Positions 13,168 to 51,845 of a stretch of DNA of 64,000 nucleotides are shown in pieces. Made by a program: the position numbers and the translations under genes. Each line of letters opens with the position of its first letter. The stretch's first letter is position 1. The notes beneath the pieces are model-generated. The model was not told the origin of the DNA. It did not search any database and worked only from the letters and a program-made list of their open reading frames with translations. The DNA comes from an uncultured Spirochaetota bacterium. Its GTDB lineage: Bacteria > Spirochaetota > Spirochaetia > SZUA-6 > Fen-1364. Location: positions 64,001 to 128,000 of the forward strand of contig CAVTHO010000003.1 in NCBI GenBank assembly GCA_963734545.1, read 5' to 3'.

Positions 13168-13241
13168 GGCGATAATCTCCTTTCGTCGTCGATACGAGGC
13201 TTCCAAGCGCCTCGTGCTATCGCAGACGTTCGCATGTTCCT

Positions 13242-13303
13242 CGTTACTCCACCGTTACGGGATTGAGACCCTGGCAGTTACGGAGGCGTTACGGGCGTGA
13301 CGG
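13242..13303. promoter_or_regulatory. heptameric direct repeats, putative SARP operator
   Basis: GTTAC(GG) at 13243, 13254, 13277, 13288 and GTGACGG at 13297. Confidence 0.6.
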
Positions 13304-13367
13304 CCGCTGGTTTTTGATTCCTCGCATCACGTTTCAGCTAGTATATTTGCGACCAGGGCAAGGAATC

Positions 13368-15602: not shown

Positions 15603-15841
15603 ATGCCGGCGCGGATGGGTTGGTATACATGGACTCGCGCTGAAGAAATTGACTTTCATGATCAACCGAACAAGCGTTTCAGAATGCACTTGTGGCGTTT
15701 TTGAATTTATTCTCAGAAACCCTCCCCCTCCCGAAGGTATGATTCCATTCATTTTGCTGCTGGAAGGTACAGTAGATCTGAGGCTCTCGAGGTTGAGGCG
15801 CTTTCACTTGGTGCGGCTCCGTGCCGGCCCTCGATCGAGCG

Positions 15842-32558: not shown

Positions 32559-33370
32559 CAATGGGCCTCCCGAAGCACGGGAGAGAGGAGGCGTACCGGG
32601 AGATACACGAGGAAGGAGAGAGTGGCAATGAAGAAGCTGACCGGAATCGTGCCGCTCACGGCCGCGAAAAGCACGCCGAGCCACACGTATGCCAGGCCGA
32701 GCCCGGCGGAGAGAAGGATTGCCACGAACGGGCGCTTGACGAGCCGGGTCGCCGTGGCGGCCGGGCCAACGAGGAGAGTGAAGACGAGGAGGGCGCCCAT
32801 CATCTGTATCGACAAGGACACGGTGACCGCAACGATCACCATGAGCGCAACGGAGAGCAGCTTCAACGGCACGCCGCGCGCCTCCGCGGCAAGGGGGTCG
32901 AAGGTGCTGAAAAGCAGGGGCCGGTAGAGGAAGACGATCGCGGCGAGGATGATGAGCCCGCTGAGAGAGGTCACCACGACGTCGTGCGCGCTGATGCCCA
33001 GGATGCTGCCGAAGAGGATGGCGTACACGCGCTGCGCGTAGCCCGCGTAAAGGGCGAGGAAGAGAAGCCCGATCCCGAGTGCAAGCGTCATGAGAACACC
33101 GATCGCGACGTCGCGCTCGCGCACGTCGGTTCCGATCATGCCCATGGCAACCGCGGCAGCCGTGGAGAACGCGAATAACCCGTATACCGGGTCGACACCC
33201 AGAAGAACCGCCCCTGCCGCGCCCGCGAATCCGATGTTCGGCAGGGCATGCCCCGCGAATGTCAGACCCCGGGATACCAGAAAATAGCCGCTCGCGGCGG
33301 CGAGCACCGCGACGATCGACCCGGTGAGAAGCGCGTGCACGATGAACGGGTAGCCGAGGAGCTCGCGCAT
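32558..33370 (-). CDS. metal ABC transporter permease
   Basis: [21 protein letters not shown]. Confidence 0.9.
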
Positions 33371-33371
33371 C

Positions 33372-34162
33372 TCAGATCTGCGCCCCCACCACGAATACCC
33401 TCCCCAGCGCCTGCACGACCTCGACCGGCGCTCCGTACAGGGCGGTCAACGTCCGGCTCGTGATGACTTCCGCTGTCGTGCCGATTGCGCTGTGACCGTT
33501 GGCAAGGTACAGGACGCGGTCCACGTGGGAGAGGAGGGGGTTGATGTCGTGGGTCACGAACAGCACGGCGGCCTTGTCGAGACCGGCAGATGCGGCGGAC
33601 CAGCGCGATTATCTCCTGCTCGCGGGAGATGTCCAGATTGGCGAGCGGCTCGTCCAGGAGGAGGAGCCGGGGATCCGTCAGCAGCGCCTGCGCAATGAGA
33701 AGGCGCTGCCGCTCTCCGCCGGAGAGCCGTCCCATCGGCTCGTCGGCAAGGTCCTCCGCATCCACTTCCCGAAGGACCTTGTCAATGGCGGCCCTCGCGC
33801 GCCTTGCTCGGCCATCCGGGTCCCCAGCGGTTCCCGTCCAGCCCGAATCGGACCACTTCCCTGGCCCGGAGAGACATTTCCGCCTCTATCACGCGAAACT
33901 GCGGCACGTAGCCGATTCTCGCGTTCCCTTTCCCGGGTGCCCCGCCGAACACCTCGACCCGTCCGGCATCGGGCTTCAGGAGCCCGAGCAGGACCTTCAG
34001 CAGGGTGCTCTTGCCGGCACCGTTGGGGCCGAGGACGGCAATGAATTCGCCGTCCTCGATCGTGAAGGTCATGTTCTCCTGGATCGTGCGGCCTCCCAGA
34101 CTCACCTTGACGCCTTCCAGCGAGGCAACGTGGGACGCGCGCGGCTGGGCTTCGGCTCCCAT
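33372..34162 (-). CDS. metal ABC transporter ATPase (frameshifted)
   Basis: [27 protein letters not shown] across three frames. Confidence 0.88.
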
Positions 34163-34168
34163 CGCGCC

Positions 34169-35067
34169 CTACTTTCCCAGGGCCTGCGCGAGGGCCGTGA
34201 GCTGGCTCAGCATCCAATCCTGGTAGTTCATGGCCGAGGGCATGGTCTCCGTCACGGGCTACGATCGGTATGCCCGCAGACTGCGCCTCTTCCTGGAGTT
34301 TCGTGGTTATGGGCGAAATGGTCTGCTCATTGTAGACCAGTACCTTGATCTTTTTCCCCTTCACCTGATTTTCCGCAGCAACGACCGTGTCGGCGGGCGG
34401 ATCATTCCCCTCGGCAATCGCCTTCTGGAACTCGAGCGGCGTCAGGACGACCAGCCCGAGAGGCTTTGTCTGATAGAGGAATATTGTTTCGGTCAATCCG
34501 ATGGGGGTTCCGCTCCACCTGGCCCTGATGTCCGCCATCTTCTGGCGCACCTTCATCAGAGACTTCTGAAAGTCCTGGAGGTTCCGCGCAAAGAGAGCCG
34601 CGTCCGCCGGGGCGAGCTTCTGGAGGGCACCGGCAACCGACTGCGCGATCCCCTGCACGTTGTCGAGGTCGTACCACACATGCTCATTGTCGGGAAGCTT
34701 GTTGCCGGCAATATCGTATGCCTTCAGCAGGATACGCTTGCCGCTGCGGCGACCCTGAGAGCAGCTTGTCCATCCAGTCGTCGTAGCCGCCGCCGTTCTC
34801 GATGACGAGGTCTGCCACGGCAACGGCCTTCGCGTCGTTGACGCTGGACTCGTACTCGTGCGGATCCAGGTTCGGGTCGGAGAGGATGCTGGTGACGTGG
34901 ACGCGCTCACCGCCCAGCTGCTCCGCGATGTTGCCGTAGAAGTTCTCGGCGGCTACGACGTTGATCAGCTTCGCGCTGCCTGCAGCCCCAAAGGCCGCGC
35001 CGCCCGCGATGAGAAATATGAGCGCGGCAAGCCCGCGCCAAACACGAACTGAAGTCGTTGACGTCAT
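34169..35067 (-). CDS. Zn/Mn ABC substrate-binding protein (frameshifted)
   Basis: AENFYG, DPHEYE, NGGGYDDW, NEHVWY, YNEQT. Confidence 0.88.
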
Positions 35068-35112
35068 GCGTCACCTCCTTGAAATATATGGAAAATCCCA
35101 TTTGCGTGCAAA

Positions 35113-35179
35113 TGAGACAGAGTATCCATAAGCCAAAGGTAACCAATCAGCCGCTTATCGTCAATGAGACTCTGTATCA
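35113..35179. promoter_or_regulatory. two Fur/Zur-type 7-1-7 boxes
   Basis: TGAGACA-G-AGTATCC (35113) and TGAGACT-C-TGTATCA (35165) upstream of the metal ABC operon. Confidence 0.55.
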
Positions 35180-35261
35180 ATAGGCGGGTTCGCCGCGCAC
35201 CCGGCCCATGGCGGCTGCAGACCTTGCACTCCCTTCGCCGGCTGATATACTTGGGGATACG

Positions 35262-35735
35262 ATGAAACGGATCATCATGCTCGGCGCCTGCATCGCCGTC
35301 GCGATGTGTGTGACGGGCTGTGACGCGATGAACTACCTCTGGCAGAGAATCATGGGACGCGGCTATTCGCAGATCGACATGACATCACTTGAGAACGCGC
35401 AGGACCGCGCGTCCGCCATGACGCTTTCCGGAAGCTCCCTCGCGGCGAATACCGTGCTCGGATACAAGACGCGCCATGGGAACCTCGGGAAGCTCGTGAT
35501 TCTGGCTTCCCCGACCGGTTCCAGCATGACTTTCCAGTTCACGACCTACAGCATTCTGGACGGGAGCATACTGAAGAGCTCCCGCGCGGTGACCCTCACC
35601 GGCAACACCCGCTATGATCTGGAGGAGGGGATTCCGGCGGACAGCTTCAGCGCGAGCGATTTCCTGTGGCAGTCCGACGCCGCGCTGGTCCCCCAGGGTG
35701 CGCCGATCAGGGCCGAGTTCTTTACCTTGCCGTGA
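35262..35735 (+). CDS. hypothetical lipoprotein
   Basis: MKRIIMLGACIAVAMCVTGC lipobox. Confidence 0.7.
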   Translation: MKRIIMLGACIAVAMCVTGCDAMNYLWQRIMGRGYSQIDMTSLENAQDRASAMTLSGSSLAANTVLGYKTRHGNLGKLVILASPTGSSMTFQFTTYSILDGSILKSSRAVTLTGNTRYDLEEGIPADSFSASDFLWQSDAALVPQGAPIRAEFFTLP

Positions 35736-35740
35736 GAGAT

Positions 35741-35768
35741 GCGGCCCCCGCCGCAAGGCGGAGGCCGC
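35741..35768. terminator. hairpin between convergent genes
   Basis: GCGGCCCCCGCC-GCAA-GGCGGAGGCCGC. Confidence 0.6.
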
Positions 35769-35786
35769 GTGAGGATCCGTTCTGCT

Positions 35787-37312
<1,526 letters not shown>

Positions 37313-37407
37313 TATTGAATCCTCCTGTCCCTCAAGATACCTACAATAGATTATGAAATGGTTGGACGATTGTTAATTTTCCTTAATCTGGTATCATACC
37401 GCCGCGC

Positions 37408-38203
37408 ATGAACAACGACCAGATCAAAAGGATTCTCCTGTCCCTGCGGAAGACCGGGCACGACTTCACCGTCATCCTCTCCGGAAAGAAGAGCAGGAAG
37501 GTCCACGGCCTGTACAAGCCGGACAGCCGCGAGATCATCATCCACAACAGGAACTTCAAGAACGACAACGAGCTGATGTACACCGCCATCCACGAGTACG
37601 CGCATCACATCCAGTTCACCACCGTCCGCCACGCCCGTGTCCGCGCGCACGCATACCACGGCGTTCTGGAACCTTCTCCATACCCTGCTCTTCGAGGCGG
37701 AAGCAAAGGGAATCTACACGAACCCCTTCGAGTCCATCGAGGAGTTCCGGGCGCTGACCCGGCGGATCCGGGAGAAGTTCCTGTCGGAGAGCGGCGCCCT
37801 GATGAAGGAGCTGGGGAGGCTCCTCGTGGAGGCGCACGAGCTGTGCGAGAAGCACGGAACGAGCTTCTCCGGACTACCTGGACCGGGTGCTCGCGCTGCC
37901 GCGCACGAGCGCCCAGGTCATCATGAAGGCGCACACCCTCGACCTGGATCCCGCGGTCGGCTTCGAGAACATGCGCTCGCTCGTCTCCATCCGGGACGAA
38001 CGCTCGCGGGCAGGGCGCAGGAGGAGCTCCGGGACGGGCACAGCCCCGACATGGTGAAGGCCGCGTACATCAGCCCGAAACCTCCCCGCAGCCGCCGCGA
38101 GGCGCTGCAGGAGGAGCGCGAGCGGATCGAGAAGAGCATCGAGCGCCTGAAAAAACGGCTGAAGGAGATCGAGAAGCGGATCGCGGAAACAGGGGAGGAG
38201 TAG
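37408..38203 (+). CDS. hypothetical protein with HExxH motif and C-terminal coiled coil (frameshifted)
   Basis: HGLYKP...IHNRNF...TAIHEYAHH; continues in other frames. Confidence 0.7.
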
Positions 38204-38209
38204 GGCAAG

Positions 38210-38723
38210 ATGGAAGTCTATGACGCAATGCGCACGCGCAAGAGCGTGCGGGCATTTCTCCCCCGCCCGGTGCCGGATGACCTCCTGCGCCGTGTCCTCG
38301 AAGCCGCGCGCGGCGCGCCGTCGGCGCGCAATGCGCAGGAGTGGCGCTTTGTGGCCGTGCGCGAGAGCGGGACACGGGAAAGGCTGGCGCTGGAGGCGGC
38401 GCGGCAGCCTTTCATCGGCACCGCCCCCGTGCTCCTTGCCTGCTGCGCGGAGACGGACGGCAGGATCATGCGCTGCGGCCAGCCCGCATACCCGATCGAC
38501 GTGGCCATCGCCATGGATCATCTCACGCTGGCCGCCACCGCGGAGGGTCTCGGCACCTGCTGGATCGGGTCATTCGACGAGACCCTGGTGAAGGAGATTC
38601 TGGGTATTCCCGCCGGCGGTCAGGGTGGTCCAGCTCATGCCGCTGGGATACCCCGCGGACCCGTCAGCGGTGGGCAAGAGCCGGCTGGGCCTGGATACGC
38701 TCCTGCACTACGAAAGGTGGTAA
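38210..38723 (+). CDS. nitroreductase family protein (3' frameshift)
   Basis: RKSVRAF, APSARNAQEW, GLGTCWIG. Confidence 0.88.
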
Positions 38724-38751
38724 GGGGCGCTCCGGGGAGACACCATCGGCT

Positions 38752-39237
38752 TCAATGACTGTGCGCGGACGGGCCTTCATGCGGGTGCCCGTGCTCGATT
38801 TCATCCGGGGTAGCCTCCCGCACCTCCACGATGTCCACGTCGAAGTGAAGCGTGAGCCCTGCCAGGGGATGGTTCCCGTCCACCGTGACCTCATCTGCGT
38901 CCATGCCGATCAGCGTGACCATGTGTCCCTCCCCATCGCCCTGTACCTGGAACTGCATGCCGACCTCGAGGTTGTCCACTCCCCGGAACTGGGCGCGCGG
39001 GACGCTGAAGACGATCGAGTCGTCGCGCGCCCCGTAGGCCTGATCGGGCGCGACGGTGACGGAGACATGGTCGGCAGGCGCTTTCCCTTCCAGGGCCGTC
39101 TCCAGCCCCTCGATCATGCTGCCCGTGCCGTGGAGGTATGTCAGCGGCTCTTCGCCTTTCGAGCTGTCGAGGATCGTCCCGTCCTCTCCTGTAAGCGTGT
39201 AGGCGATCGAGACCACCCTGTTCTTGGAAACGATCAT
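38752..39237 (-). CDS. slyD: FKBP-type peptidyl-prolyl isomerase SlyD
   Basis: YLHG..MIEGLE, AYG, VDGNHPLAG, His-rich tail. Confidence 0.92.
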   Translation of the reverse strand: MIVSKNRVVSIAYTLTGEDGTILDSSKGEEPLTYLHGTGSMIEGLETALEGKAPADHVSVTVAPDQAYGARDDSIVFSVPRAQFRGVDNLEVGMQFQVQGDGEGHMVTLIGMDADEVTVDGNHPLAGLTLHFDVDIVEVREATPDEIEHGHPHEGPSAHSH

Positions 39238-39332
39238 GCGCCACACTTGCCGAACTGCGGGAGGGTGTCAAGGAGGGGCGCCTGCACTCGCTCGAGGTTG
39301 ACGCCGCTGCCGCGTTGCGTCAATCATGACGG

Positions 39333-40043
39333 ATGCCGAAGCTCGAGATCAGCAAGGTCCACGATGCATACGCCGGCGGCGGGGAATGCCCTCTCTGCAC
39401 CCTGATGGAAGGAGCGGAGGAGACATACCTGCGTTCCTTCCAGCATTCCCGCGTCATGGAGCCCCGGGTCCGGGTCAAGACCAATGAGACGGGCTTCTGC
39501 CCCGATCACTATCGCAAGCTGTACGCGCGGGAGAACAAGCTCGGTCTCGGCCTCGTCGTGCACACGCATCTTCGGGAGAAGCTGCCCGAGCTGCGCGCGG
39601 CGTTCGATACGCTGCGGGCGGCCGGCCGCAAGGGAAAAAAGATGGACGAGGCCGCAGCCTCCCTCGCGCGCCTCCATGACCGCTGCTTCATCTGCGAGCT
39701 GCTGCAGGGAGATCTGGACCGCTACGCCTTCACGATCCTGTTCCTGTGGAGCAAGGACGCGGAGTTCCTGCCGAGGTTCCGTTCTTCACGCGGCTTCTGC
39801 CTGGACCATTTTCTTTCGATCCTTGCCAGGGGCCGCGTGATGCTGAGGCCGGACAGGCTGGAGCGCTGGCTCGGTGACGCTGCCGCCCTCATGACGGACA
39901 GCCTGGAGCGCCTGGAGCGGGAGCTCGAAGCGTTTACCCAGCTTCATCACGACGCAAACAGGAGCCTGGGCACCGACGAGGAGCGCACGGCGCTCGCCCG
40001 TACCATGCAGAAGCTCGCCGGGGGCCGGTTCCGGCTGGAATGA
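39333..40043 (+). CDS. DUF6062-like zinc-binding protein
   Basis: ECPLC, GFCPDH, CFIC, GFCLDH. Confidence 0.75.
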   Translation: MPKLEISKVHDAYAGGGECPLCTLMEGAEETYLRSFQHSRVMEPRVRVKTNETGFCPDHYRKLYARENKLGLGLVVHTHLREKLPELRAAFDTLRAAGRKGKKMDEAAASLARLHDRCFICELLQGDLDRYAFTILFLWSKDAEFLPRFRSSRGFCLDHFLSILARGRVMLRPDRLERWLGDAAALMTDSLERLERELEAFTQLHHDANRSLGTDEERTALARTMQKLAGGRFRLE

Positions 40044-40052
40044 GCGGGCCCC

Positions 40053-41015
40053 TCATTCCAGCCGGGAGAGGATTTCCAGAAAATCGCGGGGGATCGGTGC
40101 GGTGATCGTAACGGCCGCGCGCGTCATGGGGTGGATGAACGTGACGCGTTCCGCGTGCAGGCACTGCCGGGAGGGGAGGGAGTCGTCGAGGACGCCGGCG
40201 TTCCTCTGGTAGCGGAGGAAGAGCTCCTCGTCCTTGTACAGCAGGTCTCCCCAGACCGGGTGGCCGAGGGCGGCCAGGTGCACCCGTATCTGGTGCTGCC
40301 GGCCGGTGAGGGGGAACGCGGAAAGCAGCGTGTGCGCGGGCAGCCTGCGCCGCACGCGGTATTCGGTGACCGAAGGCAGGCCGTCCGGGCGCGCAGCCAT
40401 CTTGACGCGCACGGTGCTGGCCGCATCCCTTCCGATGGGAAGCGTGATCCTGCCCCCGTCCTCGGCGACTCTCCCCTCGACGCACGCCGCGTACTCCTTC
40501 GATAGGAGCGCGCGCGCGGTGAGGTCCTGCAGGGCCAGCAGGGCGTCCCGGACCTTCGCGATCAGCACGATGCCGCTCGTGAAGGTGTCCAGCCGGTTGA
40601 CCAGGCTCGGATAGAAGCCGCCATCTCCGTGATTCAGGCTGTCGCGGATGCTCCCCGCGTAAAGCTGGCGCGCGGACTGGATGACGGTGCCTGATTGCGT
40701 CCTGCCCATGGGGTGGGACGCGATGCCCGCCGGTTTGTTCACGGCCAGGAGATACTCGTCCTCGTACAGTATCTCGAGCTCCGGCTGAGGGCCTCTGTCG
40801 GGAACGCCTCGCCACTCGAGGGTGATCTCGTCCCCTTCCTTCAGCCGCGTGGAGGAGGCGTAGCGCCTTCCATTGAGAAGGGATTCTCCCATCTGGATTT
40901 TCTGCCTGATGCGCGTGCGGGAAAGGAAGGGAAGCTCCCGGCACAGGAATGCCACCGCGCGCATCCCGGCGCCGGCACCGTCAACGCGCAGCCGGGCGGG
41001 GGGTAGATCAGGCAT
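40053..41015 (-). CDS. RluA family pseudouridine synthase
   Basis: NKPAG, NRLDTFTSG, TGRQHQIRVH, LHA. Confidence 0.92.
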   Translation of the reverse strand: MPDLPPARLRVDGAGAGMRAVAFLCRELPFLSRTRIRQKIQMGESLLNGRRYASSTRLKEGDEITLEWRGVPDRGPQPELEILYEDEYLLAVNKPAGIASHPMGRTQSGTVIQSARQLYAGSIRDSLNHGDGGFYPSLVNRLDTFTSGIVLIAKVRDALLALQDLTARALLSKEYAACVEGRVAEDGGRITLPIGRDAASTVRVKMAARPDGLPSVTEYRVRRRLPAHTLLSAFPLTGRQHQIRVHLAALGHPVWGDLLYKDEELFLRYQRNAGVLDDSLPSRQCLHAERVTFIHPMTRAAVTITAPIPRDFLEILSRLE

Positions 41016-42921
41016 GCTTCCGGGCGTCCAGGACTTCGCGCACCTTCAGCAGCAGGGCTGCGGGGCTGAACGGCTTCTGCAGAAAGGCGATGCCCGCGTG
41101 GAGCACGCCGTGATTGTCGATCACGTCCCGGGTGTAGCCGGACATGAACAGGGCCGGAACGCCGGGATGGGCAGCCGCCAGCCGCTCAACGAGTTCTCTG
41201 CCGCTCATGCCGGGCAGGACGACGTCGGTGATGATGAGGTCGATGTCTCCTCCCCGGGCCTCGATGATATCTTCCGCGTGTTCCCCATCGTCCGCCTCAT
41301 GGACGACATAACCGTAGCCGCCCAGCACGTTGGAGACAAGGACCCGTATCATGGACTCGTCTTCCACGAGGAGGATCGACTCCCTGCCCCCCCGTACCTC
41401 CGCGGGGGCCGTTTCCTTCGGCGCATCCGCTTCTCCCCGCACCCGGGGGAAGTAGAGATCGAAGGACGTTCCTTTTCCCGGCTCGCTCTCTGCCCAGATA
41501 TAGCCGCCGGTCTGCTTGACGATCCCATACACCGTGGAAAGCCCCAGCCCGGTGCCTTTCCCCACCTCCTTGGTGGTGAAGAAAGGCTCGAACAGATGGG
41601 CCTTCACATCCTTGTCCATGCCGCTCCCGGTGTCGCTGATCCGAAGCCGCACGTAGTCCCCCCGTGTCACGGTGTAACTGTTCTCCCGCCGGGAGGAATC
41701 CAGGAGGACGTTGCTGGTGTCCATCGTGATCCGCCCTCCCCGAGGCATGGCGTCACGCGAGTTGATGCAGAGGTTCATGATGACCTGCTCGATCTGACCG
41801 GGGTCGGCAAGGATGCTTCCCAACTCCGGGGTGAACCGGGTTTCAAGGGCAATGTCCTCCCCCAGAAGCCTCCTCAGCAGCTTCTCCAGCGTCGAAATGA
41901 GAATGTTGAGGTCGAGAATCCTCGGCCTCATCACCTGGCGCCTGCTGAAGGCCAGGAGCTGCTGGGTCAGGGAAGCCGCCCGGTTGCCCGCCTTCTTGAT
42001 CTCTTCCAGGTTTTTTTTCAGCGTCCCGGAATCGTCGAGGCTCAGCATGGAGTAGTCGCAATAGCCGATGATCGCGGTGAGCAGATTGTTGAAGTCGTGG
42101 GCAACCCCGCCGGCCAGCCTTCCCACCGCCTCCATTTTCTGCGCCTGGTTGAGCTGCTCGAGGAGCCGGGCGCGCTCCGAGACATCGCGCGCGACCCCGT
42201 AGACCTGCCGCTTTCCCCCCGGACCGGTGTCCGCGGTCAGGTGCGCCTCCATGGTCATCTTCCTTCCGTCAGAGGCGAAGAACTCGAACTGGGTCTCCCT
42301 GTCCACCCTGTACTCTCCCTCGAGGAGCTCCCGGAGAACGGCCCGCGCGCTCTCCTGCTCGTGCGCGGGGAGTCTGTCGATGATGAATGTGCCGATGTAG
42401 CGCGACGGCACATAGCCCGTGATGGCCTCGAGGCGGGTGCTGAGATACGTGATCATTCCATTCTCGTCGAGGGTGAAGATAATGTCGTTCACCCGCTCCG
42501 TCATGAGCCGGTAGCGGCGCTCGGATTCGACGAGCTGCGCCGTGCGTGCCTGCAGGCTTTCCACCATGGAATTGAAGGAGTCCGCGAGCCCACGGACCTC
42601 GTCTCCTCCGCGGATGCTGATGCGGTAGTCGAGGTTGCCGGCGCTGATGGTGCGCGTGCCGTGGAGGAGATGCACGAGCGGCCGCGTGATGGCCCTGCTC
42701 ACGAAGAGGCCCAGCACGAGTGAGAGCCCGATGCCGAGACTGGCCAGAAGGAGGGACTCGCGGAACAGCACGCTGGCGGTAAGCGGATCATCCGCGGCGG
42801 GCTGCCGCACGGTCAGGAAGAACAGGCTGAGCATTGAGACGGCAATGCACGCCAGGGACACCCCGACGAGGGCGGCGAATATCTTCACCGTGATGCTCTT
42901 CCAGAACGGCGCGATCTTCAC
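41008..42921 (-). CDS. hybrid sensor histidine kinase (2TM-HAMP-PAS-HisKA-HATPase-REC)
   Basis: [30 protein letters not shown], receiver domain; GTG start overlaps upstream stop. Confidence 0.92.
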
Positions 42922-43196
42922 GTCCGCGCTTCCTCTTTCTTCCTGCGGTAGCTCAGCTTCAGGCTTTCCGTCACGCCGTATTCGACGGAGCGCCGGGAGC
43001 AGAAGAGCGCAGAGGGATCCCCGTAGCGGAGGTACGCGGCGAACAGGCAGCCATCGCCGCAGATCGGCACCCACGCAATGGCGGCGCGCAGCTCGTCGTC
43101 GATGATGACCTGGGCGCGCGTCAGCGTGTGGAAGAGAAGGTGGGAGCCTTTTGCCGGGAAATCGGAGATCGAGGTGGTGAACCGGGAGGCTGTCAT
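42918..43196 (-). CDS. 92-aa protein resembling the fused N- and C-termini of a radical SAM/SPASM peptide maturase
   Basis: SRFTT...HLLFHTLTRAQVIID N-terminus joined to WVPICGDGC...GDP..FC SPASM-tail-like motif; GGGAG RBS. Confidence 0.55.
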   Translation of the reverse strand: MTASRFTTSISDFPAKGSHLLFHTLTRAQVIIDDELRAAIAWVPICGDGCLFAAYLRYGDPSALFCSRRSVEYGVTESLKLSYRRKKEEART

Positions 43197-43205
43197 TGAC
43201 TCCCT

Positions 43206-43301
43206 TTACGCTCCCGTCCCGCTGAAGATCAGGCTGCAGCAGCTGATCGCCACGACGCCATCGGACACGCGTGAGCCTTCCTCGATGATTTCCAGGATCA
43301 T
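43206..43301 (-). CDS. 31-aa Cys-Cys peptide, putative RiPP precursor (geopeptide-like)
   Basis: MILEIIEEGSRVSDGVVAISCCSLIFSGTGA; AGGAAG RBS; 5 nt after the SBP stop, 9 nt before the next start. Confidence 0.65.
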   Translation of the reverse strand: MILEIIEEGSRVSDGVVAISCCSLIFSGTGA

Positions 43302-43306
43302 GTGTC

Positions 43307-44863
43307 TCACTTCCTTTCCAGATACCAGTTGTGCATACGGCCGCCCAGAGACGAGATCTCCTCCGGCGTGACACCGCGCAATCGGGCGGAACAGGCCGCG
43401 TACCGCTTCCCGAAGAAGAGGAAAGCGGCCGGCGCATCGTCCGCGATCAGAGCGTACATTTTCCTGTAGATGTCTCTCCTGTCATTGAAATCCGAGGCGA
43501 CCTTTCCCCTTTCGATCAGTCGGTCCACATCCGGATTGCGGTAGCCGGTGATGTTCCAGCCGCCGATCGATGAGGAGTGCCAGAACAGGCTCGCGGAAAG
43601 ATCGGGATCGGTGAACATGTTGAACTGGATGAGCGCCGCCTGGAACTCGCCCGCGGGCATCCTCTTCTCCACCATCTCATGCAGAGGGAGGACCACGACG
43701 TCCATCCGAATACCGATCTGGAGCAGCTGCCACTGCAGCCTCTTTGCGAGGGCGCCCTTCAACCTGTCTTCACCGCATTCGAGGACCGTGAACTGCAGAT
43801 TCCTGCCTTCCTTGTCCAGGATCCAATCGTTGTCGCTGTCTCTCCATCCCAGGTCTGAAAGGATCTTCGCCGCCTGCCGGGGATCGTACGCCTGCAGGTG
43901 GGGATCCGGATTGTAGGGCCAGGTCCCCGGTTTGAATGGACCGCTTGCCGCAAGTCCCTTTCCGCGCAGGACCGTGTCCAGGAGATCCCGGCGATCGATT
44001 GCCATGGCGATTGCCCGGCGCATGGCGCGCTGCGCGAAGAGCGGGTCCCGGGTGTTGAACAGGAGGGAGGAACAGAAATTTTCCAGGAACTCGTATCCCC
44101 TGAAGCGCCCGTCATTTTTGATCAGCACGTAATCGTCGTAGTCGACATCCGGGACCAGGTCCACCTGGCCTTGCAGCAGCGAGACCCACGCTTTTTTGTT
44201 GTCGGAGAAGAATTTGAAGACGATCCTGCCGAGCCGTGGTCTTCCCATGAAATAGCCGGGGTTGGCGTCCAGCGTGATCTGGCCGGGTGTCCAGCCGGAA
44301 AGGGTGAACGGGCCCGTCCCGATCGGGTGCCTGTCGAACTCGGCACTCGCGCCCCCTGCTTCCCGGAGCAGATGCGCGGGGACGATCGGCCGGCCGAGCA
44401 GGGCGGGGAGCAGCCGGTAGGGGGTTTTCAATTCAATCCTGAAGAAGTCCGCGCCGTCCGAGCGGAAAGACTTTACGACCTGCGAAAAATCACTGAATCG
44501 ATTTCCGTACTTCGGGTCAAAACCCTTCTCGTAAGTGAATGCCACGTCCTCCGCCGTCACCGGCGTGCCGTCGGAAAAACGAACCCCCTTTCTCATGCGG
44601 AAAGTCCAGGACAACCCATCCGCGGAAATCTCCCAGCTTTCCGCAAGGTCGGGTCCGGGCGCCGAGCCTCCGGCGAATGCGACCAGGCCGTCCGTGAAGC
44701 AATTGATGATCACATTTGCGAAGCCCTCGGGAGCGAACAGGGGGTTGAGGCTCGCCGGCTCGTCATAGTATGCAAGGACGAGCGTCCCCCCCCTGGGTGA
44801 CTGGTCAGAGTACGCGGCGCCGGCGACAAGCAGCAGGAGGAGCCCGGGTAAGAATCGCCTCAA
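43307..44863 (-). CDS. family 5 peptide ABC substrate-binding protein
   Basis: PDLAESWEIS.DG..WTF, FSDG.P.TAEDV, PIGTGPF, RRAIAMAIDR. Confidence 0.9.
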   Translation of the reverse strand: MRRFLPGLLLLLVAGAAYSDQSPRGGTLVLAYYDEPASLNPLFAPEGFANVIINCFTDGLVAFAGGSAPGPDLAESWEISADGLSWTFRMRKGVRFSDGTPVTAEDVAFTYEKGFDPKYGNRFSDFSQVVKSFRSDGADFFRIELKTPYRLLPALLGRPIVPAHLLREAGGASAEFDRHPIGTGPFTLSGWTPGQITLDANPGYFMGRPRLGRIVFKFFSDNKKAWVSLLQGQVDLVPDVDYDDYVLIKNDGRFRGYEFLENFCSSLLFNTRDPLFAQRAMRRAIAMAIDRRDLLDTVLRGKGLAASGPFKPGTWPYNPDPHLQAYDPRQAAKILSDLGWRDSDNDWILDKEGRNLQFTVLECGEDRLKGALAKRLQWQLLQIGIRMDVVVLPLHEMVEKRMPAGEFQAALIQFNMFTDPDLSASLFWHSSSIGGWNITGYRNPDVDRLIERGKVASDFNDRRDIYRKMYALIADDAPAAFLFFGKRYAACSARLRGVTPEEISSLGGRMHNWYLERK

Positions 44864-44956
44864 GTAAGCTACCTTTCGTAAGGCGGGGACTAATCTTTAA
44901 TAGGGCCATTTTAGTCAAAAACGTTACTCTTGTCAAGAAAAACCTTAACTCCACTA

Positions 44957-46909
44957 TCAGGTGTTTTCCGCGAGCGGGAGCTTGAACAGGTCGACGAGGA
45001 CCGACAGGTTCCGCGGGTTTTCCATTATCGATCCTTCCTTTGTATACGCATATTCGATGAGGTCGGCGTGAACCTCCGTTATCCTGTGCCGCACCAGCTT
45101 CATCGTGGAGTTGACCGTGCCGTTCTTCTCGCTGAAAGGTTCGGCGACGAACTGGAACACGGAAGGAACCCATGCTGCCTGCACCTTTTTTGCCTTGGGA
45201 TCGGCCTTGAACCTGTACAGCTCGTCTTTGAGGATCGGCAGGAGCGCCTCGGCGCTGCGGATGCCGCGGCTTCGAATCAGCCGTTCGACCTTGCCCGTGT
45301 CCAGGCAGACGAGGGCAACCGTGTATTTCCTGTGGTCGCAGTACGCCATCACCTGGTCGATCACGTCCGTCGAGAAGCCTATTGCCTCTTCGATCTCCTC
45401 GGGGCTGTACTTCTCCCCGTCTTCCGTGATGAGCAGGGCCTTCTCCCGGCCGACCACGACGAGGAAACCGTCCGTGTCCCAGTAGGCGAGGTCTCCGGTG
45501 TACAGCCACCCGTCGCGCAGCGCGCGCGCGCTTGCATCGGGGTTCTTGAAATAGCCCTTCATGACATTGCCGCCGCGAATGACGATTTCTCCCGTCTCCT
45601 TCGGCCCCGCCGGACTGCCGTCCGCTTTCACCAGACGGCACTCGATGGAGTCGAACACGATGCCGGACGTTCCGAACTTGTGCTTCGCGGGGGTGTTCGC
45701 GCAGATGATGGGCGCCGCTTCGGTCAGACCGTAGCCCTGGTAGACGGGCACTCCGAACGCGGCGAAGAACTCCTGCTGCTTGACGTCGAGCAGCGCCCCG
45801 CCGCCGATGCAGAAGCGTATCGAGCCTCCGAAAACCATCTTCTTGATCTTGTTGAATATCAGGAGCTTCGCGATTCCATAGGGGAGCATGTTCTTCAAGC
45901 GGACGCCCAGGCGCGGCGCCGTGAACCCGTTTCCATTGAGCGATACGCCGGCCGCGATGCCTGCCTTGAAGAGCTTTTCGATCAGCCCGCCCTTCTCCTC
46001 CACGCCGGCGACGATCTTCTTCATGAGGTTGCCGCTCAGGGAAGGGACAGTGAAGAGAAAATGAGAGCGGGACTCGACCAGGTTGACGGGGATATTGCGG
46101 AGCGTTCCGATGCCGCCGCCGCGCGAGTCCACGAAGTACAGTGTCACGCCGCACACGAGTCCCGTGTACAGGCCCGCCGTGTGGGCAAAGGAGTGGTCAA
46201 CCGGAAGGATGATCAGGGAGCGCCACCCCGGCGGCAGGGGAATGGCTTTCACCGCGTCATGGCAGTTGGTCCAGTAGTTGAGGTGTGTCAGCATGATGCC
46301 CTTGGGGTTTCCCGTTGTCCCCGAGGTATAGCTGATCGTGACCGTGTCATCCTCTTCCACGGAGTCAATGCACTGGTCGAGCCTGGCACCGAGTGAGGGG
46401 AGGGCGGCCCGGCCCGCGGCGCGCGCCTCGTCAAAGCCGATCACGCGGTCCGCGCTCACTCCGTACTCAGCGGCGGTAGAGCGCGCCCACTCCGGGTCAT
46501 CGTCGAGGTAGATGACCTGGATCTGCCGGTTTTCGGCCCGACTGAAAGAACCGAGAACCTTCTTGAGCTGGTTCCTCGTGGTGAGTATCGCGCGCGCCTC
46601 GGAATGATCCAGCCGGAAGGGGATTTCCTCCTCGAGCAGCTTGATGGAAAGGGGAACAGACACGCACCCTGCCATCAGCAGGCCGAACTCTCCCACGATC
46701 CATTCGGGACTCCCCTCCGCCAGCACGGCAATGCGATCGTTCCTGCGGACGCCCGTGGAGAGCAGCCAGGCCGCGAATTCGCGCGCACGCTCCCGGGCCT
46801 CTCTGAATGAAACGGGAACCCAGCCGGCGTCGGTCTTCCTGTACGCGTAGGCGGCAGAGCCCCATTGGAGAGCCGCCTCATCCAGCATTCTCAGTACCGT
46901 TTTCTTCAT
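44957..46909 (-). CDS. long-chain fatty acid-CoA ligase
   Basis: YTSGTTGNPKG, QGYGLTE, GWLYTGD. Confidence 0.9.
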   Translation of the reverse strand: MKKTVLRMLDEAALQWGSAAYAYRKTDAGWVPVSFREARERAREFAAWLLSTGVRRNDRIAVLAEGSPEWIVGEFGLLMAGCVSVPLSIKLLEEEIPFRLDHSEARAILTTRNQLKKVLGSFSRAENRQIQVIYLDDDPEWARSTAAEYGVSADRVIGFDEARAAGRAALPSLGARLDQCIDSVEEDDTVTISYTSGTTGNPKGIMLTHLNYWTNCHDAVKAIPLPPGWRSLIILPVDHSFAHTAGLYTGLVCGVTLYFVDSRGGGIGTLRNIPVNLVESRSHFLFTVPSLSGNLMKKIVAGVEEKGGLIEKLFKAGIAAGVSLNGNGFTAPRLGVRLKNMLPYGIAKLLIFNKIKKMVFGGSIRFCIGGGALLDVKQQEFFAAFGVPVYQGYGLTEAAPIICANTPAKHKFGTSGIVFDSIECRLVKADGSPAGPKETGEIVIRGGNVMKGYFKNPDASARALRDGWLYTGDLAYWDTDGFLVVVGREKALLITEDGEKYSPEEIEEAIGFSTDVIDQVMAYCDHRKYTVALVCLDTGKVERLIRSRGIRSAEALLPILKDELYRFKADPKAKKVQAAWVPSVFQFVAEPFSEKNGTVNSTMKLVRHRITEVHADLIEYAYTKEGSIMENPRNLSVLVDLFKLPLAENT

Positions 46910-47011
46910 GCCCGGGACGATACCATGGAAAGCCCCGCGCCGCCACTTGCCTGCGCGGGGGAATGCATGCTTGAATCACTCACTTCAGCGGAACAGGGGC
47001 GGGGGCAACGG

Positions 47012-47848
47012 GTGGCAATTCTTCTTGCGGGGCTCTCTGCGCTCATGTACGGCGCGGCCGACTTCTGTGGCGGGCTGGGCACCCGGAAGAGCCCTCTCGT
47101 GACCGTGCTGGCGCTCTCACAGTTCGTCGGTCTCGTGCTCGCGCTGGGCATCTCGCTGCTGGAGGGGCAGGCGCTTCCGATTGCCGGGGACCTGGCCTGG
47201 GGCGCGATATCCGGGGTGTGCGGAACTGCCGGGCTTGCCGCGCTCTACACGGCCCTGGCCACCACGCCGGTTGCCGTGGCGTCCCCCGTTGCCGCTGTGG
47301 TCGGCGCGGTTATTCCCGTCCTGCTGGGCGTGACGCTGGGCGATCGGCCCGGCTCCCTGGCCTGGACCGGGATCGCGCTGGCCGTTCCCGCAATCGTCCT
47401 GCTCAGCGCGGGACCGGCCGCGAGCGTGAAGACCGGGCCGGTGCGGCGCGCGGCCCTTCTGGGCACGGCGGCAGGAATCGGCTTCGGCTTGTTCTTCTTC
47501 GCGATCTCCCGCACCGCGCACGCATCGGGGCTGTGGCCCCTGGTGACTGCCCGGGCGTCCACCATTTCGATCGTCGCGCTCTTCGCTCTCTTCTCCGGCC
47601 GGTCCCTCCGGCCGGCGCGGTCCGGGCTCCCTCTCATTCTGGTCTCCGGTGTGCTCGACATGGGCGCGAACATCGCGTTCCTGCTTGCAAGCAGGGCAGG
47701 CATGCTGTCCACCGTTGCGGTTGTCTCTTCGCTCTACCCCGGCCCTACCGTGCTTCTTGCCTGGCTGGTGCTGCGGGAGCGGCTTACGCCTCTCCGCGTC
47801 TGTGGCCTTGCCCTGGCCCTTGCGGGGGTCGCTCTCATTTCCGTCTGA
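47012..47848 (+). CDS. DMT/EamA family transporter
   Basis: YGAADFCGG, about 10 TM, SLYP...LRERL; start uncertain. Confidence 0.85.
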   Translation: MAILLAGLSALMYGAADFCGGLGTRKSPLVTVLALSQFVGLVLALGISLLEGQALPIAGDLAWGAISGVCGTAGLAALYTALATTPVAVASPVAAVVGAVIPVLLGVTLGDRPGSLAWTGIALAVPAIVLLSAGPAASVKTGPVRRAALLGTAAGIGFGLFFFAISRTAHASGLWPLVTARASTISIVALFALFSGRSLRPARSGLPLILVSGVLDMGANIAFLLASRAGMLSTVAVVSSLYPGPTVLLAWLVLRERLTPLRVCGLALALAGVALISV

Positions 47849-47871
47849 CTAATCCCCGCGATTTTTTTGCC

Positions 47872-48066
47872 TCAGGATGCGCCTGCCTGCGTGTGCCGGT
47901 AGTCGAGGTATTTCTTGATGGCGGCGTCATTGATGTATCCCAGCTCGATGGCAATCTCGCCGAACATTCTGGAGTCCCCGCCTTGCTGTGCCCGAAGCAC
48001 GTCGTCGATCTGGTATTGCTGCATGGCCCCGATCCGCACGAGAAACTCTCCGATCCTGTTTTCCAT
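47872..48066 (-). CDS. stand-alone MshEN-like (c-di-GMP-binding) protein
   Basis: RIGEFLVRIGAM...VLRAQ and MFGEIAIELGYI tandem motifs. Confidence 0.7.
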   Translation of the reverse strand: MENRIGEFLVRIGAMQQYQIDDVLRAQQGGDSRMFGEIAIELGYINDAAIKKYLDYRHTQAGAS

Positions 48067-48114
48067 GAGAACGCCTCCGCCGCGCCGTGATATGCCCTTT
48101 CCCGCCGTGATACC

Positions 48115-48167
48115 TTCCACGGTACTCCGTGGAGTTTCACGGTATCCCGTGCAGTTTCATGGATTCT
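48115..48167 (-). repeat. REP-like hairpin cluster
   Basis: Minus strand AACTGCACGG-GATA-CCGTG and AACTCCACGG-AGTA-CCGTGGAAGG. Confidence 0.7.
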
Positions 48168-48302
48168 TTTTCAATGATAGGCACAATCACGGCGGGATGG
48201 AAGCTCAATCCGGCAGGGTGGGAGAATCCACCGTGCCGCCATGCGGCCTGGTGCCGGACAGGAAAATCCTTTCTGCCGCCATGCGGCAGAGAAGTGCGCA
48301 TG

Positions 48303-48337
48303 AAAAAGCCTCCGTGCCGTCACGCGGCCCGGAGGCT
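48303..48337 (-). terminator. flaB terminator
   Basis: AGCCTCCG...CGGAGGCTTTTT. Confidence 0.7.
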
Positions 48338-48366
48338 CGGGGGTGTCTCAGCGTTCCGGGGAACGC

Positions 48367-49227
48367 CTATTTGAGAAGCTGGAGCACCGTCTGCGGCTTC
48401 GCATTCGCCTGGGCGAGCATTGCCGTGGCCGCCTGTGTCAGGATGGCGTTCTTGGTGTACTCCACCATCTCGGTGGCCATGTCCGCGTCGCGGATGCGGG
48501 ACTCCGCCGCCTGCAGGTTCTCCGCCCCCACGTCCAGGCCCCTCACCGCGTACTCCAGCCTGTTCTGGTACGCTCCCAGGTCCGCCCGCTGCTTGTTGAT
48601 CACCTTCAGCGCCGAATCCAGGGTGCCGATCGACTGGTTGGCCCCGTCCGGGGTGGACAGGGAGATGATCTCCCGGGTGCCGATGTTCCTCATCTTCAGG
48701 GCCCCCGCGGTCATGGTGCCGATGAACACGCGCGTGCGCTGGTCCATGTTGGCCCCGATGTGCAGCCACATGGAGGCGGTGATCACGTTCGCCCCCTCCA
48801 GGCGCGCAAAGCGTCCCGTGAGCATGTTCATGCCGTTGAACTGCGCGTGAGAGGCGATGCGGTCCACCTCGTTGACCAGGGCGGAAACCTCGACCTGGAT
48901 CTGCATCCTGTCCTCGTCGGTGTAGATGCCGTTGGCCGCCTGCACGGAGAGCTCGCGCAGCCTCTGGATGATGTCCTGGCTCTCCTGGAGGTAACCCTCG
49001 GTGGTCTGGATGAAAGAGATGCCGTTTGCGGCGTTGGAGCTGGCCTGGCGGAGACCGCGGATCTGGGAGCGCATCTTTTCCGACACGGCGAGACCCGAGG
49101 CGTCGTCACCGGCGCGGGTGATCCTGCTTCCCGAGGAGAGCTTCTCCATGCTCTTGCTCAGGGAAAGGTCGTTCAGCTTGAGCTGCCGATCCGCGAAAAT
49201 CGCGCTCATGTTGTGATTGATGATCAT
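48367..49227 (-). CDS. flaB: flagellar filament core protein FlaB
   Basis: [41 protein letters not shown]; spirochaetal type. Confidence 0.97.
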
Positions 49228-49396
49228 GAATTCCTCCTTGCGAATTCCCTCAGGCAGTCCTTTTCCCATGCCGAAAAGAAGACTAAGGGAAGAAATAAAA
49301 GGAGCGCGGCCGCGAGGCCAGAACTACCCTCACTCCTTGTTTCGACAGACTGAAGTTTAAAAATAAGGTGATTTTTGAAAAAAAATCGCGGGAGCG

Positions 49397-50041
49397 CTAT
49401 TTCAGTCCCAGCTGAGCTTTCAGCCGGTCGACCTCTTTTCTGGTTGCGGCTGCCAGCGGCTTGTACCGGACTTCACGATAGAGAAATATCTCCGGATCCT
49501 CCGTCTGCAGCAGCTTTTCTTCCGTTGCATCATATTGCCGGCACATGGCGGCGGCCTGTTCCTTCTTTCCCACGACAAGATAGAATGAGGCGAGCCCTTT
49601 GTAGGCGGGGAGCAGGAACGGATCACAGATCAGGGCCGACAGGTAGGCGATTTCCACCAGTCCAATGGCCTGGCTCTGGGCATCGGACCCCTGGGAGAGG
49701 TCTCCCAGGTGCTGGATGATGTCACCGGCGAGCCCGACGAGCGTCGCGCCGAAGGCGGAAAGCGCCAGCCGCGGGTCTTCCCAGATCTTCGCCAGCTCGA
49801 CGAAATTGTTCTTCACGCAATCATAGTATTCCGAGACGAACACGAAACGGCTGATCTTCAGGACATCGCCGTTCGCGTTGCCGATCAGCATGCGCAGGAC
49901 TTCGGGGCGGATGGAGCTCCAGAACTTGCGCTCTCCGAGAGAGCGCAGCAGCTCCTCGACGTCCGTGATATTGAAGAGTCTATCGCTGCCGAATAAGGCC
50001 GTAATGAGCTCCCTGCGGAAAACCTCCGCGTCCGTCCACAT
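49397..50041 (-). CDS. hypothetical helical/TPR-like protein
   Basis: 214-aa ORF with a TPR-like segment (AYLSALICDP...AYKGLA). Confidence 0.6.
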   Translation of the reverse strand: MWTDAEVFRRELITALFGSDRLFNITDVEELLRSLGERKFWSSIRPEVLRMLIGNANGDVLKISRFVFVSEYYDCVKNNFVELAKIWEDPRLALSAFGATLVGLAGDIIQHLGDLSQGSDAQSQAIGLVEIAYLSALICDPFLLPAYKGLASFYLVVGKKEQAAAMCRQYDATEEKLLQTEDPEIFLYREVRYKPLAAATRKEVDRLKAQLGLK

Positions 50042-50100
50042 TCATTCCTGGGGCGCGTCCATTGCGCACGAGGATATCATTGCGCGGGCAACCGTGGAAA

Positions 50101-50190
50101 GCAGGGTGCCCGAAGCCGCGGAACGCACGGAGTACCGTGCAGGGTGCCCGAAGCCACGGAATGCACGGAGTACCGTGCAGGGTACCGCGG
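50101..50190 (+). repeat. 38-bp tandem repeat (about 2.3 copies) containing the REP-like hairpin
   Basis: GCAGGGTGCCCGAAGCCRCGGAAYGCACGGAGTACCGT x2 plus partial copy. Confidence 0.85.
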
Positions 50191-50258
50191 CGGAGGGCGA
50201 TTTACGCCGCGCGCCGGAGTGCTACTATCAGCGGGAAGCAGATTGAGAGGTGTGAGAA

Positions 50259-50465
50259 ATGAAATGCATGGCCTGCGGGCACGAAGAGACCACAGGCGAA
50301 GAGTTCCTCCAGATCCAGGTCCTCGGCGCAGCGCCAATGGCCGGCATCCTGGAGTCCCTGGCAATCGTCAGTGAAAAAGGGGTGAGGCATCATGTCGATC
50401 TTTATGCCTGCCCGCGCTGCGGGACGGTCCGGCTCGAGAAGTCGCAGGAGCGGAGCGGCCATTGA
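50259..50465 (+). CDS. small zinc-ribbon protein
   Basis: MKCMACG...LYACPRCGTV; GAGG RBS. Confidence 0.7.
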   Translation: MKCMACGHEETTGEEFLQIQVLGAAPMAGILESLAIVSEKGVRHHVDLYACPRCGTVRLEKSQERSGH

Positions 50466-50514
50466 ATAAGATCACGAAATAGAACAAGCTTGATGGGAAG
50501 GTGAGGAGGCGGGA

Positions 50515-50805
50515 ATGAAGAAGAGAGTCGGAGCAAAGAAAGCAGCCCCCCGCAAGGCAAAGAAAGCCGTAAAGACGGTGAAGGCCGGAAAGAAGGCAGC
50601 GGTGAAACGCGCGTCCCGCGCGTCAAAGCGTGTCGTGCAGAAAGCCGTGAAGAAGCCCGTGCAGAAGCTCGAGCAAAAGAGGGAAGAGGTAAAAGTGGCG
50701 GCCAAGGCGCCCGCGGCTGAAAAGCGCCCTTTCTGGGGCTTCCTGGGCATTGGCAGGAAGCAGAAGGCGAAAGTTTCCATAATGGATCTGCAGGGGAAAA
50801 AATAG
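50515..50805 (+). CDS. Lys/Ala-rich histone H1-like basic protein
   Basis: KKAAPRKAKKAVK repeats; GAGGAGG RBS. Confidence 0.65.
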   Translation: MKKRVGAKKAAPRKAKKAVKTVKAGKKAAVKRASRASKRVVQKAVKKPVQKLEQKREEVKVAAKAPAAEKRPFWGFLGIGRKQKAKVSIMDLQGKK

Positions 50806-50818
50806 ACGCGCGGCCGGG

Positions 50819-51845
50819 CTAAGAAATCTCCATGAGCCTCCGCGCGGCATTCACGATGCGCACGGCGTCCGGGACATAGAACCTTTCCATCGGCGGAGAA
50901 AAAGGGGCCGGCGTGTCCGGCGCCGCCACCCGAGTGATCGGGGCCACGAGAAAGTCGATCATTTCTTCCGCGAGGGTGGCGGCGATCTCCGCTCCCAGAC
51001 CGCCGCGCCTCGGGCTTTCCTCCACCGTGATCACCCGCCCTGTTTTGGCCACGGACTCCTTCACCAGCTCCCAGTCGAATGGAACGATCGAGCGCGGATC
51101 GATCACCTCCGCGCTTATTCCCTGCCCGGCCAGGAGCGCGGCGGCCTCCATGGCCCTGTGCATCATGAGCAGCGTCGCGATGATCGTCACGTCGCTGCCT
51201 TCCCGCCGGACAATGCCCTTTCCGATCGGTACGAGATAATCCTCGTCGGGAATCATGCTCGACGCATCGATCGTGCCGGATTCGGAGCGCGGGCCCTTGG
51301 AGCCGTACAGGAGCTTGTGCTCGAAGATCAGCACGGGATTGCCGTCCCGGACCGCGGATTTCAGCAGCCCTTTTGCGTCATACGCCGTTGCGGGGGCCAC
51401 GAGCTTGATCCCCGGGCAGGGGAAGGAAAAAGGGCTCCATCATCTGCGCGTGCTGCGCTCCGCGACCCGTGACTCCCACGGGGGCGCGCATCACCATGGG
51501 CGTCGTGAGCTTCCCGCCCGACATGTAGCGCATCTTGGCCACCTGGTTCCCCACCTGGTCCATGGCGCAGAAAAGGAAATCGGAGTACTGCACGTCCGCG
51601 ATCGGCCTCATTCCCATGAGGGAAGCGCCCAGCGCCGCGCCCATCAGGCCCGCCTCCGAGATGGGAGTGTTCACCATCCGGTCGGGGAACTCCTTCTCCA
51701 GGCCGAGCGTCACGGTGAACGCGCCCCCCCACCCGCCGGGGATCCCGATGTCCTCGCCGATGCAGAACACACGCTCGTCCCTGCGCATTTCCTCCGCAAT
51801 CGCCTCCCGCAGTGCTTCCGCTATCCCGAGCCTGTGTGCCGTCAT
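50819..51845 (-). CDS. 2-oxoacid/acetoin dehydrogenase E1 beta (frameshifted)
   Basis: GEDIG, TPISE, AQHAQ, EHKLLY, EVIDPRS. Confidence 0.9.

Follow-up and report, generated by a model that had tools for sequence, protein, structure and literature searches.

The subject of this analysis is a four-gene locus on the minus strand of a stretch of 64,000 nucleotides (nt) of DNA, hereafter the window, from an uncultured Spirochaetota bacterium (assembly GCA_963734545.1, contig CAVTHO010000003.1, positions 64,001 to 128,000). It encodes a solute-binding protein (SBP), a peptide of 31 amino acids (aa), a 92-aa remnant of a radical S-adenosylmethionine (SAM)/SPASM enzyme and a hybrid histidine kinase. 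We consider it probable, at about 0.6, that the locus represents, in spirochaetes, a widespread and uncharacterised cassette for a geopeptide-like ribosomally synthesised and post-translationally modified peptide (RiPP), that the maturation enzyme has been lost here, and that the peptide of this family functions as a signal.

43307-44863, minus strand: family-5 solute/peptide-binding protein, 518 aa (PF00496)
43206-43301, minus strand: 31-aa precursor peptide with leader MILEIIEEG, variable linker and core ISCCSLIFSGTGA (conservation and profile search)
42918-43196, minus strand: 92-aa stub of a 439-aa geopeptide-type radical SAM/SPASM maturase (alignment to G014 and G002)
41008-42921, minus strand: hybrid histidine kinase, 637 aa (Pfam and hydropathy)

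Here and below, G014, G002, G017 and G005 are genomes of the same genus, L-numbers are loci extracted for comparison and X1 to X4 are wetland sequencing runs.

A compact locus with a conserved precursor peptide

The genes run in the order SBP, 31-codon open reading frame (ORF), 92-codon ORF and kinase. Five nucleotides separate the stop codon of the SBP gene from the ATG of the precursor (43301), 5' of which lies an AGGAAG Shine-Dalgarno-like site; the precursor stop is followed after 9 nt by the 92-aa ORF, and the TGA of the latter overlaps the GTG start of the kinase (42921). All coordinates and spacings were verified, bearing out the four tightly packed minus-strand genes, with their gaps of 5 and 9 nt and the stop/GTG overlap, that a first-pass annotation made from the sequence alone had described.

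That annotation had also singled out the 31-aa peptide with its adjacent cysteines, and this proves to be a small ORF that is conserved in relatives. In an alignment of 12 spirochaete precursors, Gly9, Cys21 and Cys22 are invariant; the window peptide is 84% identical to that of G014 and 74% identical to that of G002, and it is also conserved in nine further spirochaete loci. A profile built from the 12 copies has a single match in this 89%-complete genome (E 1.8e-15; the next is at 0.087), so that no second copy was found by this search. The ratio of nonsynonymous to synonymous substitution rates (dN/dS) of the precursor is 0.27-0.42, and strain variants in contigs of X1 and X4 are confined to linker residues 10-18. 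Because of its conservation we take the 31-codon ORF to be a real gene; a chance ORF was considered and rejected in view of the conservation across 12 spirochaete loci and the unique profile match.

The spacer between precursor and maturase genes differs among relatives. G014 carries a 24-nt unit twice between the two genes (L021, 5713-5782), each copy with a GCACGG/CCGTGC hairpin, and the unit is absent from the window and from G002. Contigs of X1 and X4 depart from the window at 43210 into sequence resembling the G014 repeat; the spacer is therefore polymorphic, and it may act as an attenuator that sets the ratio of peptide to enzyme.

The maturase has lost its catalytic core in this genome

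A search of the 92-aa ORF against 60 relatives and the window's own genome returned matches (E < 1e-9) in 4 of 20 other genomes of the genus, 0 of 4 from other genera of the family and 10 of 36 from the same order. Residues 1-44 and 38-92 match opposite ends of single frames of about 440 aa, at positions about 1.15 kb apart. G014 and G002 have the same neighbourhood (ligase, SBP, peptide, 439-aa ORF, kinase and RluD-type synthase), their flanking proteins are 81-94% identical, and both precursor and full-length maturase are intact. The ORF that had been annotated as a miniature radical SAM/SPASM remnant thus aligns to both ends of a 439-aa radical SAM/SPASM enzyme. Of that enzyme some 40 residues at the N-terminus and some 52 at the C-terminus are left, and the equivalents of residues ~41-387 are gone, including the CNFxCxYC sequence (the CxxxCxxC motif) and four of the seven SPASM cysteines; the last three SPASM cysteines remain. 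The ORF therefore does not qualify as a radical SAM/SPASM maturase, which would carry CxxxCxxC and a seven-cysteine SPASM region.

At the nucleotide level the stub gene measures 279 nt against 1320 nt for the full-length gene, so that 1041 nt, or 347 codons, have been lost in frame, with the junction at ~43073/43074. In the full-length genes the 9-nt direct repeat GCTGCGCGC stands at both ends of the segment that is missing here. The stub scores 11.3 bits (E 0.12) against TIGR04280, and no other geopeptide-type maturase was found in this 89%-complete genome; a second intact copy elsewhere was considered and rejected, the top match reaching 31 bits only. With the catalytic core gone and no other geopeptide-type maturase found, its cognate enzyme is unable to modify the peptide in this genome, contrary to what had been supposed from the sequence.

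An assembly artefact or an allele of a rare subpopulation could also account for the 1041-nt deletion, in which case the organism would possess a working full-length maturase; we regard this as doubtful. When contigs of the four wetland runs were compared with the region, none of the four runs bridged position 43073. In X3 and X4 the contigs on both sides end exactly at 43073 with loose ends that continue into full-length-type sequence; in X1 the contig on the C-terminal side alone stops there and runs into such sequence; X2 has a plain gap at the junction. The loose ends match the full-length gene of G014 and G002 on the corresponding side and the contig pieces are 95-99% alike to the window, indicating that closely related strains carry the full-length allele. 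In addition, the codons of the stub are no more decayed than those of the neighbouring genes, so that the deletion, if real, would be recent. However, at most 0.53 of the sampled words were found in any of the runs, which thus represent related strains rather than a proven source sample, and contigs demonstrate presence, not absence. No RNA data set was among the 24 runs listed. Moreover, an exact in-frame loss of 347 codons between 9-nt repeats is typical of slippage or recombination and argues for a real event, while a repeat of this length would not be long enough to make an assembly collapse. Either the deleted form exists in this assembly alone, or it is a minority allele or an artefact.

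Resemblance to the geopeptide system

The NCBIfam models TIGR04280 ("geopeptide radical SAM maturase") and TIGR04229 (its precursor) describe a hypothetical equivalog defined by computation. TIGR04280 is the best family for full-length orthologues of the stub, which match it end to end at 244.2, 322.6 and 314.7 bits (cut-off 400); the next-best NCBIfam matches are TIGR04463, CefB, PapB, SCIFF and QhpD-type models, with E values of 1e-17 to 1e-59. CxxxCxxC and seven C-terminal cysteines are invariant in seven orthologues. This architecture is shared with maturases that form thioethers (the ranthipeptide enzyme PapB, CefB, SCIFF and QhpD-type enzymes), although the orthologues all score far below the cut-offs of those models.

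On the peptide side, the precursor has a hydrophobic/acidic leader, a Cys-Cys core and a gene directly upstream of the maturase gene, as expected of a geopeptide-type precursor. Two of five relatives' peptides scanned match TIGR04229, at 15.1 bits (E 0.016) and 19.3 bits (E 7e-4) against a cut-off of 30, and the window peptide has no match at E up to 1. Since the scores on both models stay below their cut-offs, the geopeptide-type assignment proposed earlier is right as a resemblance and falls short of formal membership.

The resemblance extends to the layout. As in the geopeptide system, a short precursor lies directly 5' of a radical SAM/SPASM enzyme of about 440 aa, the leader is of the type x-[IV]-[LV]-x-[DE]-x-G and precedes a Cys-Cys core, and a periplasmic binding protein and a kinase belong to the cassette. 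In contrast to that system, the binding protein here is of family 5 (PF00496) rather than PF04392, the kinase is of the dCache type in the window's orthologues, the spirochaete loci are without a TonB receptor and the window's maturase is deleted. In a quick IQ-TREE tree, which is rooted at the midpoint only and leaves out the window stub, the duplicates L023 and L028 and eight fragment ORFs of L024, L034, L053, L054 and L062, 17 canonical enzymes form one clade (SH-aLRT support 99) and the spirochaete enzymes another (94), both among branches whose loci are of the SBP_5 type. In the literature searched, supplements aside, there was no paper on the geopeptide-like family and no mention of TIGR04280 or TIGR04229.

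The cassette across bacteria

A pattern scan with one genome per species yielded related loci, and a family search found canonical maturases in 25 of 401 Desulfobacterota genomes; 61 loci were annotated with phmmer using Pfam-verified seeds. Each of the 16 canonical loci (18 maturase copies) contains a TonB-dependent receptor and, next to a HAMP kinase, a binding protein of family PF04392, while SBP_5 is missing from all of them; the Cys-Cys peptide was found upstream of 16 of the 18 copies. The 38 non-canonical loci contain SBP_5 in 31 cases, a dCache kinase in 27 and a TonB receptor in 12; five of the seven that lack SBP_5 are short or cut contigs. By contrast, SBP_5 occurred in 1 of 48 control loci of other radical SAM families and a dCache kinase in none of the 48. 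Since PF04392 marks the canonical loci and SBP_5 the non-canonical ones, one and the same place in the cassette is taken by binding proteins of two unrelated families.

Judged by record titles, the non-canonical loci belong to Spirochaetota, Planctomycetota, Omnitrophota, Nitrospirota, Nitrospinota, Auribacterota and Thermodesulfobacteriota. The set of SBP, peptide, radical SAM enzyme and kinase does travel together across phyla, and the system is not confined to spirochaetes. Gene order varies between clades. In one subclade (L038, L041, L043, L045, L055, L059 and L148) the order is maturase, peptide, SBP_5 and kinase. The leader of its precursors is basic (MKLxV[IV]KKG), and between their only Cys and the C-terminus stand 5-8 residues that are aromatic or hydrophobic, as in ...LYCVWLV. 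An ABC (ATP-binding cassette) exporter directly follows the maturase in seven non-canonical loci from Omnitrophota and Auribacterota, and cassette versions in Omnitrophota, Planctomycetota and Auribacterota include ABC exporter and TonB receptor. None of the 13 spirochaete loci has a PF04392 protein; SBP_5 is found instead.

The SBP itself matches PF00496 at 267.8 bits (2e-79; cut-off 32.4) and begins with a signal-like segment. An ABC importer does not accompany it: no ABC permease was found in window positions 33001-53000, the nearest PF00528 match on the contig lies outside the window (C3:46795), and no importer permease occurs in any of the 61 annotated loci, in a search that rests on five query sequences. 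The SBP thus has no adjacent permease or ATPase that would make it part of an Opp/Dpp/Nik importer, and its description as an orphan stands for the window and for all 61 loci.

The main rival to a signal is an uptake system, in which the cassette would make a peptide metallophore or nutrient chelator that is re-imported through TonB and held by the SBP, with the kinase only tuning expression. We consider this unlikely. In its favour, TonB receptors adjoin all 18 canonical maturase copies and occur in the 12 non-canonical loci mentioned above, the window SBP scores best on the nickel/metallophore-type NCBIfam models Opp5A_nikA and NikA, and paired cysteines could bind metal. There is also a precedent in methanobactin, for which PMC7558416 describes uptake by the TonB transporter MbnT and the OppA-like periplasmic protein MbnE, with no known inner-membrane step. 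There, too, a ribosomal modified peptide is secreted and re-imported via TonB, and an OppA-family protein works without a dedicated permease; the Omnitrophota and Planctomycetota cassettes have exactly those parts.

The cassette differs from methanobactin in its maturation enzyme, which is a radical SAM/SPASM protein, and in having a two-component kinase in place of the regulators of that system. Against an uptake system, a whole subclade has the single-Cys hydrophobic cores described above, and a single Cys, if cross-linked, leaves no thiol for metal. None of the 13 spirochaete loci has a TonB receptor, the closest solved relative of the SBP is the oligopeptide-binding AppA of B. subtilis (1xoc, 1.3e-59), which binds a nonapeptide, and almost all complete loci have retained the kinase. 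The hydrophobic cores with a single Cys and the constancy of the kinase weaken the case for an uptake system.

Many Cys-containing peptides made by radical SAM/SPASM enzymes are antimicrobial, as known from the sactipeptides, and the ABC exporter of some clades would suit a bacteriocin-like RiPP whose production or immunity is regulated by the kinase and SBP. This we hold to be very improbable. Neither an immunity gene nor, in the exporter tested, a leader-cleaving C39 peptidase domain was found, the cores are very short, and one would not expect the producer of a toxin to keep a dedicated TonB importer for it.

Some loci depart from the common pattern. L136 (G229) contains two complete canonical cassettes in tandem (6219-18682), each with peptide, TonB receptor, PF04392 protein and kinase. 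In the G360, G265 and G274 loci (L120, L121/L150 and L125) the canonical maturase ORFs are 711-735 aa long, about 300 residues above the usual length, which suggests a fused extra domain. In L054 and L062 (Omnitrophota) the genes for maturase, SBP, TonB receptor and exporter are all broken up, each into two or three ORFs, which reflects either frameshift errors or pseudogenised cassettes.

A kinase without its sensor domain, and apparent erosion within the genus

The kinase comprises HAMP, PAS, HisKA (37.5 bits), HATPase_c (82.1) and receiver (69.7) domains and is a hybrid histidine kinase by this composition. Kinases outside this genus carry a periplasmic dCache_1 domain, which is present in those of L030, L039 and L049 and absent from that of the window. 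Over residues 9-628 the latter is 35% identical to residues 295-905 of the L039 kinase, which has dCache, so that only the last stretch preceding the second membrane span of a dCache-type kinase is kept. Hydropathy places the two membrane spans at residues ~8-40 and ~51-79, and the loop outside the membrane is therefore only about 10-15 residues long, in keeping with the almost missing periplasmic domain noted at first pass. The kinases of G014 and G002 share this truncated form. Another spirochaete locus (L030, 2477-6913) has the sensor in two parts: first a dCache kinase of the HisKA_3 type with a LuxR-type regulator, and after them a distinct PAS hybrid kinase, with 40% identity to the core of the window kinase.

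The loss of dCache from this genome (G000), G014 and G002 raises the possibility that in this genus SBP and kinase have become uncoupled from the peptide, the SBP feeding a generic Opp/Dpp permease (there are 99 PF00528 matches elsewhere in the genome) and the kinase sensing through its cytoplasmic PAS domain. Other decay in the genus points in the same direction: the precursor of G017, a more distant member of the genus, carries TAG where that of G005, which is intact, has Gln, and the G017 SBP is split into at least four frames (L023, 2549-4244). These lesions are either a second, independent decay or sequencing indels, and within this genus the cassette seems to be decaying along several independent lines.

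Despite this apparent erosion, SBP and kinase are under strong purifying selection, this genome included. The dN/dS of the SBP is 0.12-0.14 over all pairs (0.14 against G014 and G002) and that of the kinase 0.11-0.14 (0.13-0.14 in pairs with this genome), a constraint equal to that on the housekeeping neighbours. Three species preserve the gene order, the gaps of 5 and 9 nt and the stop/start overlap, and in G014 and G002 neither the precursor nor the full-length maturase is damaged. For these reasons we think uncoupling quite unlikely.

How a peptide signal would work

We infer the chemistry, the export, the binding and the signalling from gene content and from characterised relatives; what the data establish are the identities of the genes, the deletion, the conservation, the linkage across phyla and the purifying selection on SBP and kinase. 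Intact relatives encode a short precursor, whose N-terminal leader is hydrophobic/acidic and whose core has one or two cysteines ahead of hydrophobic or aromatic residues, together with a radical SAM/SPASM maturase that has an N-terminal leader-binding region. The maturase would cross-link the Cys, probably through a thioether as in its nearest characterised relatives, and the small hydrophobic product would leave the cell. It would then re-enter the periplasm, through the TonB receptor where there is one, and be captured there by the transporter-less SBP, which in its peptide-loaded form would switch the membrane kinase. The outcome would be an extracellular peptide signal of the cell's own making. 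In the window genome, where the 1041-nt deletion between short direct repeats removed the catalytic core, the cell could at most listen and could not produce. The production of a modified peptide envisaged at first pass thus fails for this genome on account of the deleted maturase, and its kinase is without the dCache sensor domain of the orthologues.

Sensing through a binding protein is familiar from LuxP-LuxQ, TorT-TorS and the chitin-binding protein with ChiS, and from DppA-Tap in chemotaxis. Those sensor systems resemble the cassette in that a transporter-less periplasmic binding protein stands beside a membrane kinase with a periplasmic PAS- or Cache-like domain. Unlike in those systems, the ligand here would be the cell's own modified peptide, the arrangement is known from gene linkage only, and the window kinase has no periplasmic domain.

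Several points weigh against a signalling function. The literature searched, of which supplements were no part, holds no experiment or paper on the cassette family. None of the 13 spirochaete loci has a TonB receptor, an ABC_membrane-type exporter or a leader protease, which leaves a spirochaete peptide with no recognised route out of the cell and back. The cassette is patchy, being found in 4 of 20 other genomes of the genus and 10 of 36 of the order among those searched, and in G017 the interrupted precursor and fragmented SBP add to this picture. With an outside loop of about 10-15 residues in this subclade, direct docking of a 55-kDa SBP is hard to picture. Finally, the maturase is lost and yet the precursor is intact, which fits a very recent deletion and equally an assembly problem. 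A complex prediction for SBP residues 21-518 (14-row alignment) with the unmodified 31-aa precursor (12-row alignment), run with no controls, gave 0.02 against a mark of 0.32, a score that speaks neither for nor against binding.

Flanking genes and promoter

Two further features border the cassette.

44908-44936, minus strand: sigma-70-like promoter match, TTGACA-17-TAAAAT, 11/12 consensus, 45 nt 5' of the SBP start
40053-41015, minus strand: RluD-type pseudouridine synthase (PF00849), flanking and outside the conserved cassette

The promoter is a consensus match only, one of 2 matches in the region against 1.2 expected. An AMP-binding ligase gene lies on the upstream flank and the RluD-type synthase gene on the downstream flank, where it overlaps the end of the kinase gene by 8 nt; this neighbour is shared with G014 and G002 only. 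The second gene downstream from the kinase (39333-40043) lies on the plus strand and encodes a 236-aa DUF6062 protein (PF19538, 3.7e-52) with CxxC pairs.

Implications

Signalling by modified ribosomal peptides is textbook knowledge in Gram-positive bacteria and rare in double-membraned ones. In at least seven phyla, this cassette brings together a radical-SAM peptide, a periplasmic receptor and a kinase. It is tempting to go further and propose, as a conjecture that we think doubtful, that the geopeptide superfamily is a pheromone system of double-membraned bacteria, in which a tiny, radical-SAM-cyclised Cys peptide is secreted, returns to the periplasm and is read by a transporter-less SBP and a kinase, and that the wetland spirochaete population is naturally polymorphic, with maturase-deleted strains, the one assembled here among them, keeping precursor, receptor and kinase under selection and acting as signal-negative listeners among producers.

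What is new here is the spirochaete branch, which adds a minimal version of the cassette without outer-membrane importer or exporter, a kinase shorn of its dCache sensor domain and, in the maturase deletion, a clean natural enzyme knockout beside full-length alleles in related wetland strains. The importer-less version, the dCache-less kinase and the natural knockout are ready comparisons for testing the function of the peptide.

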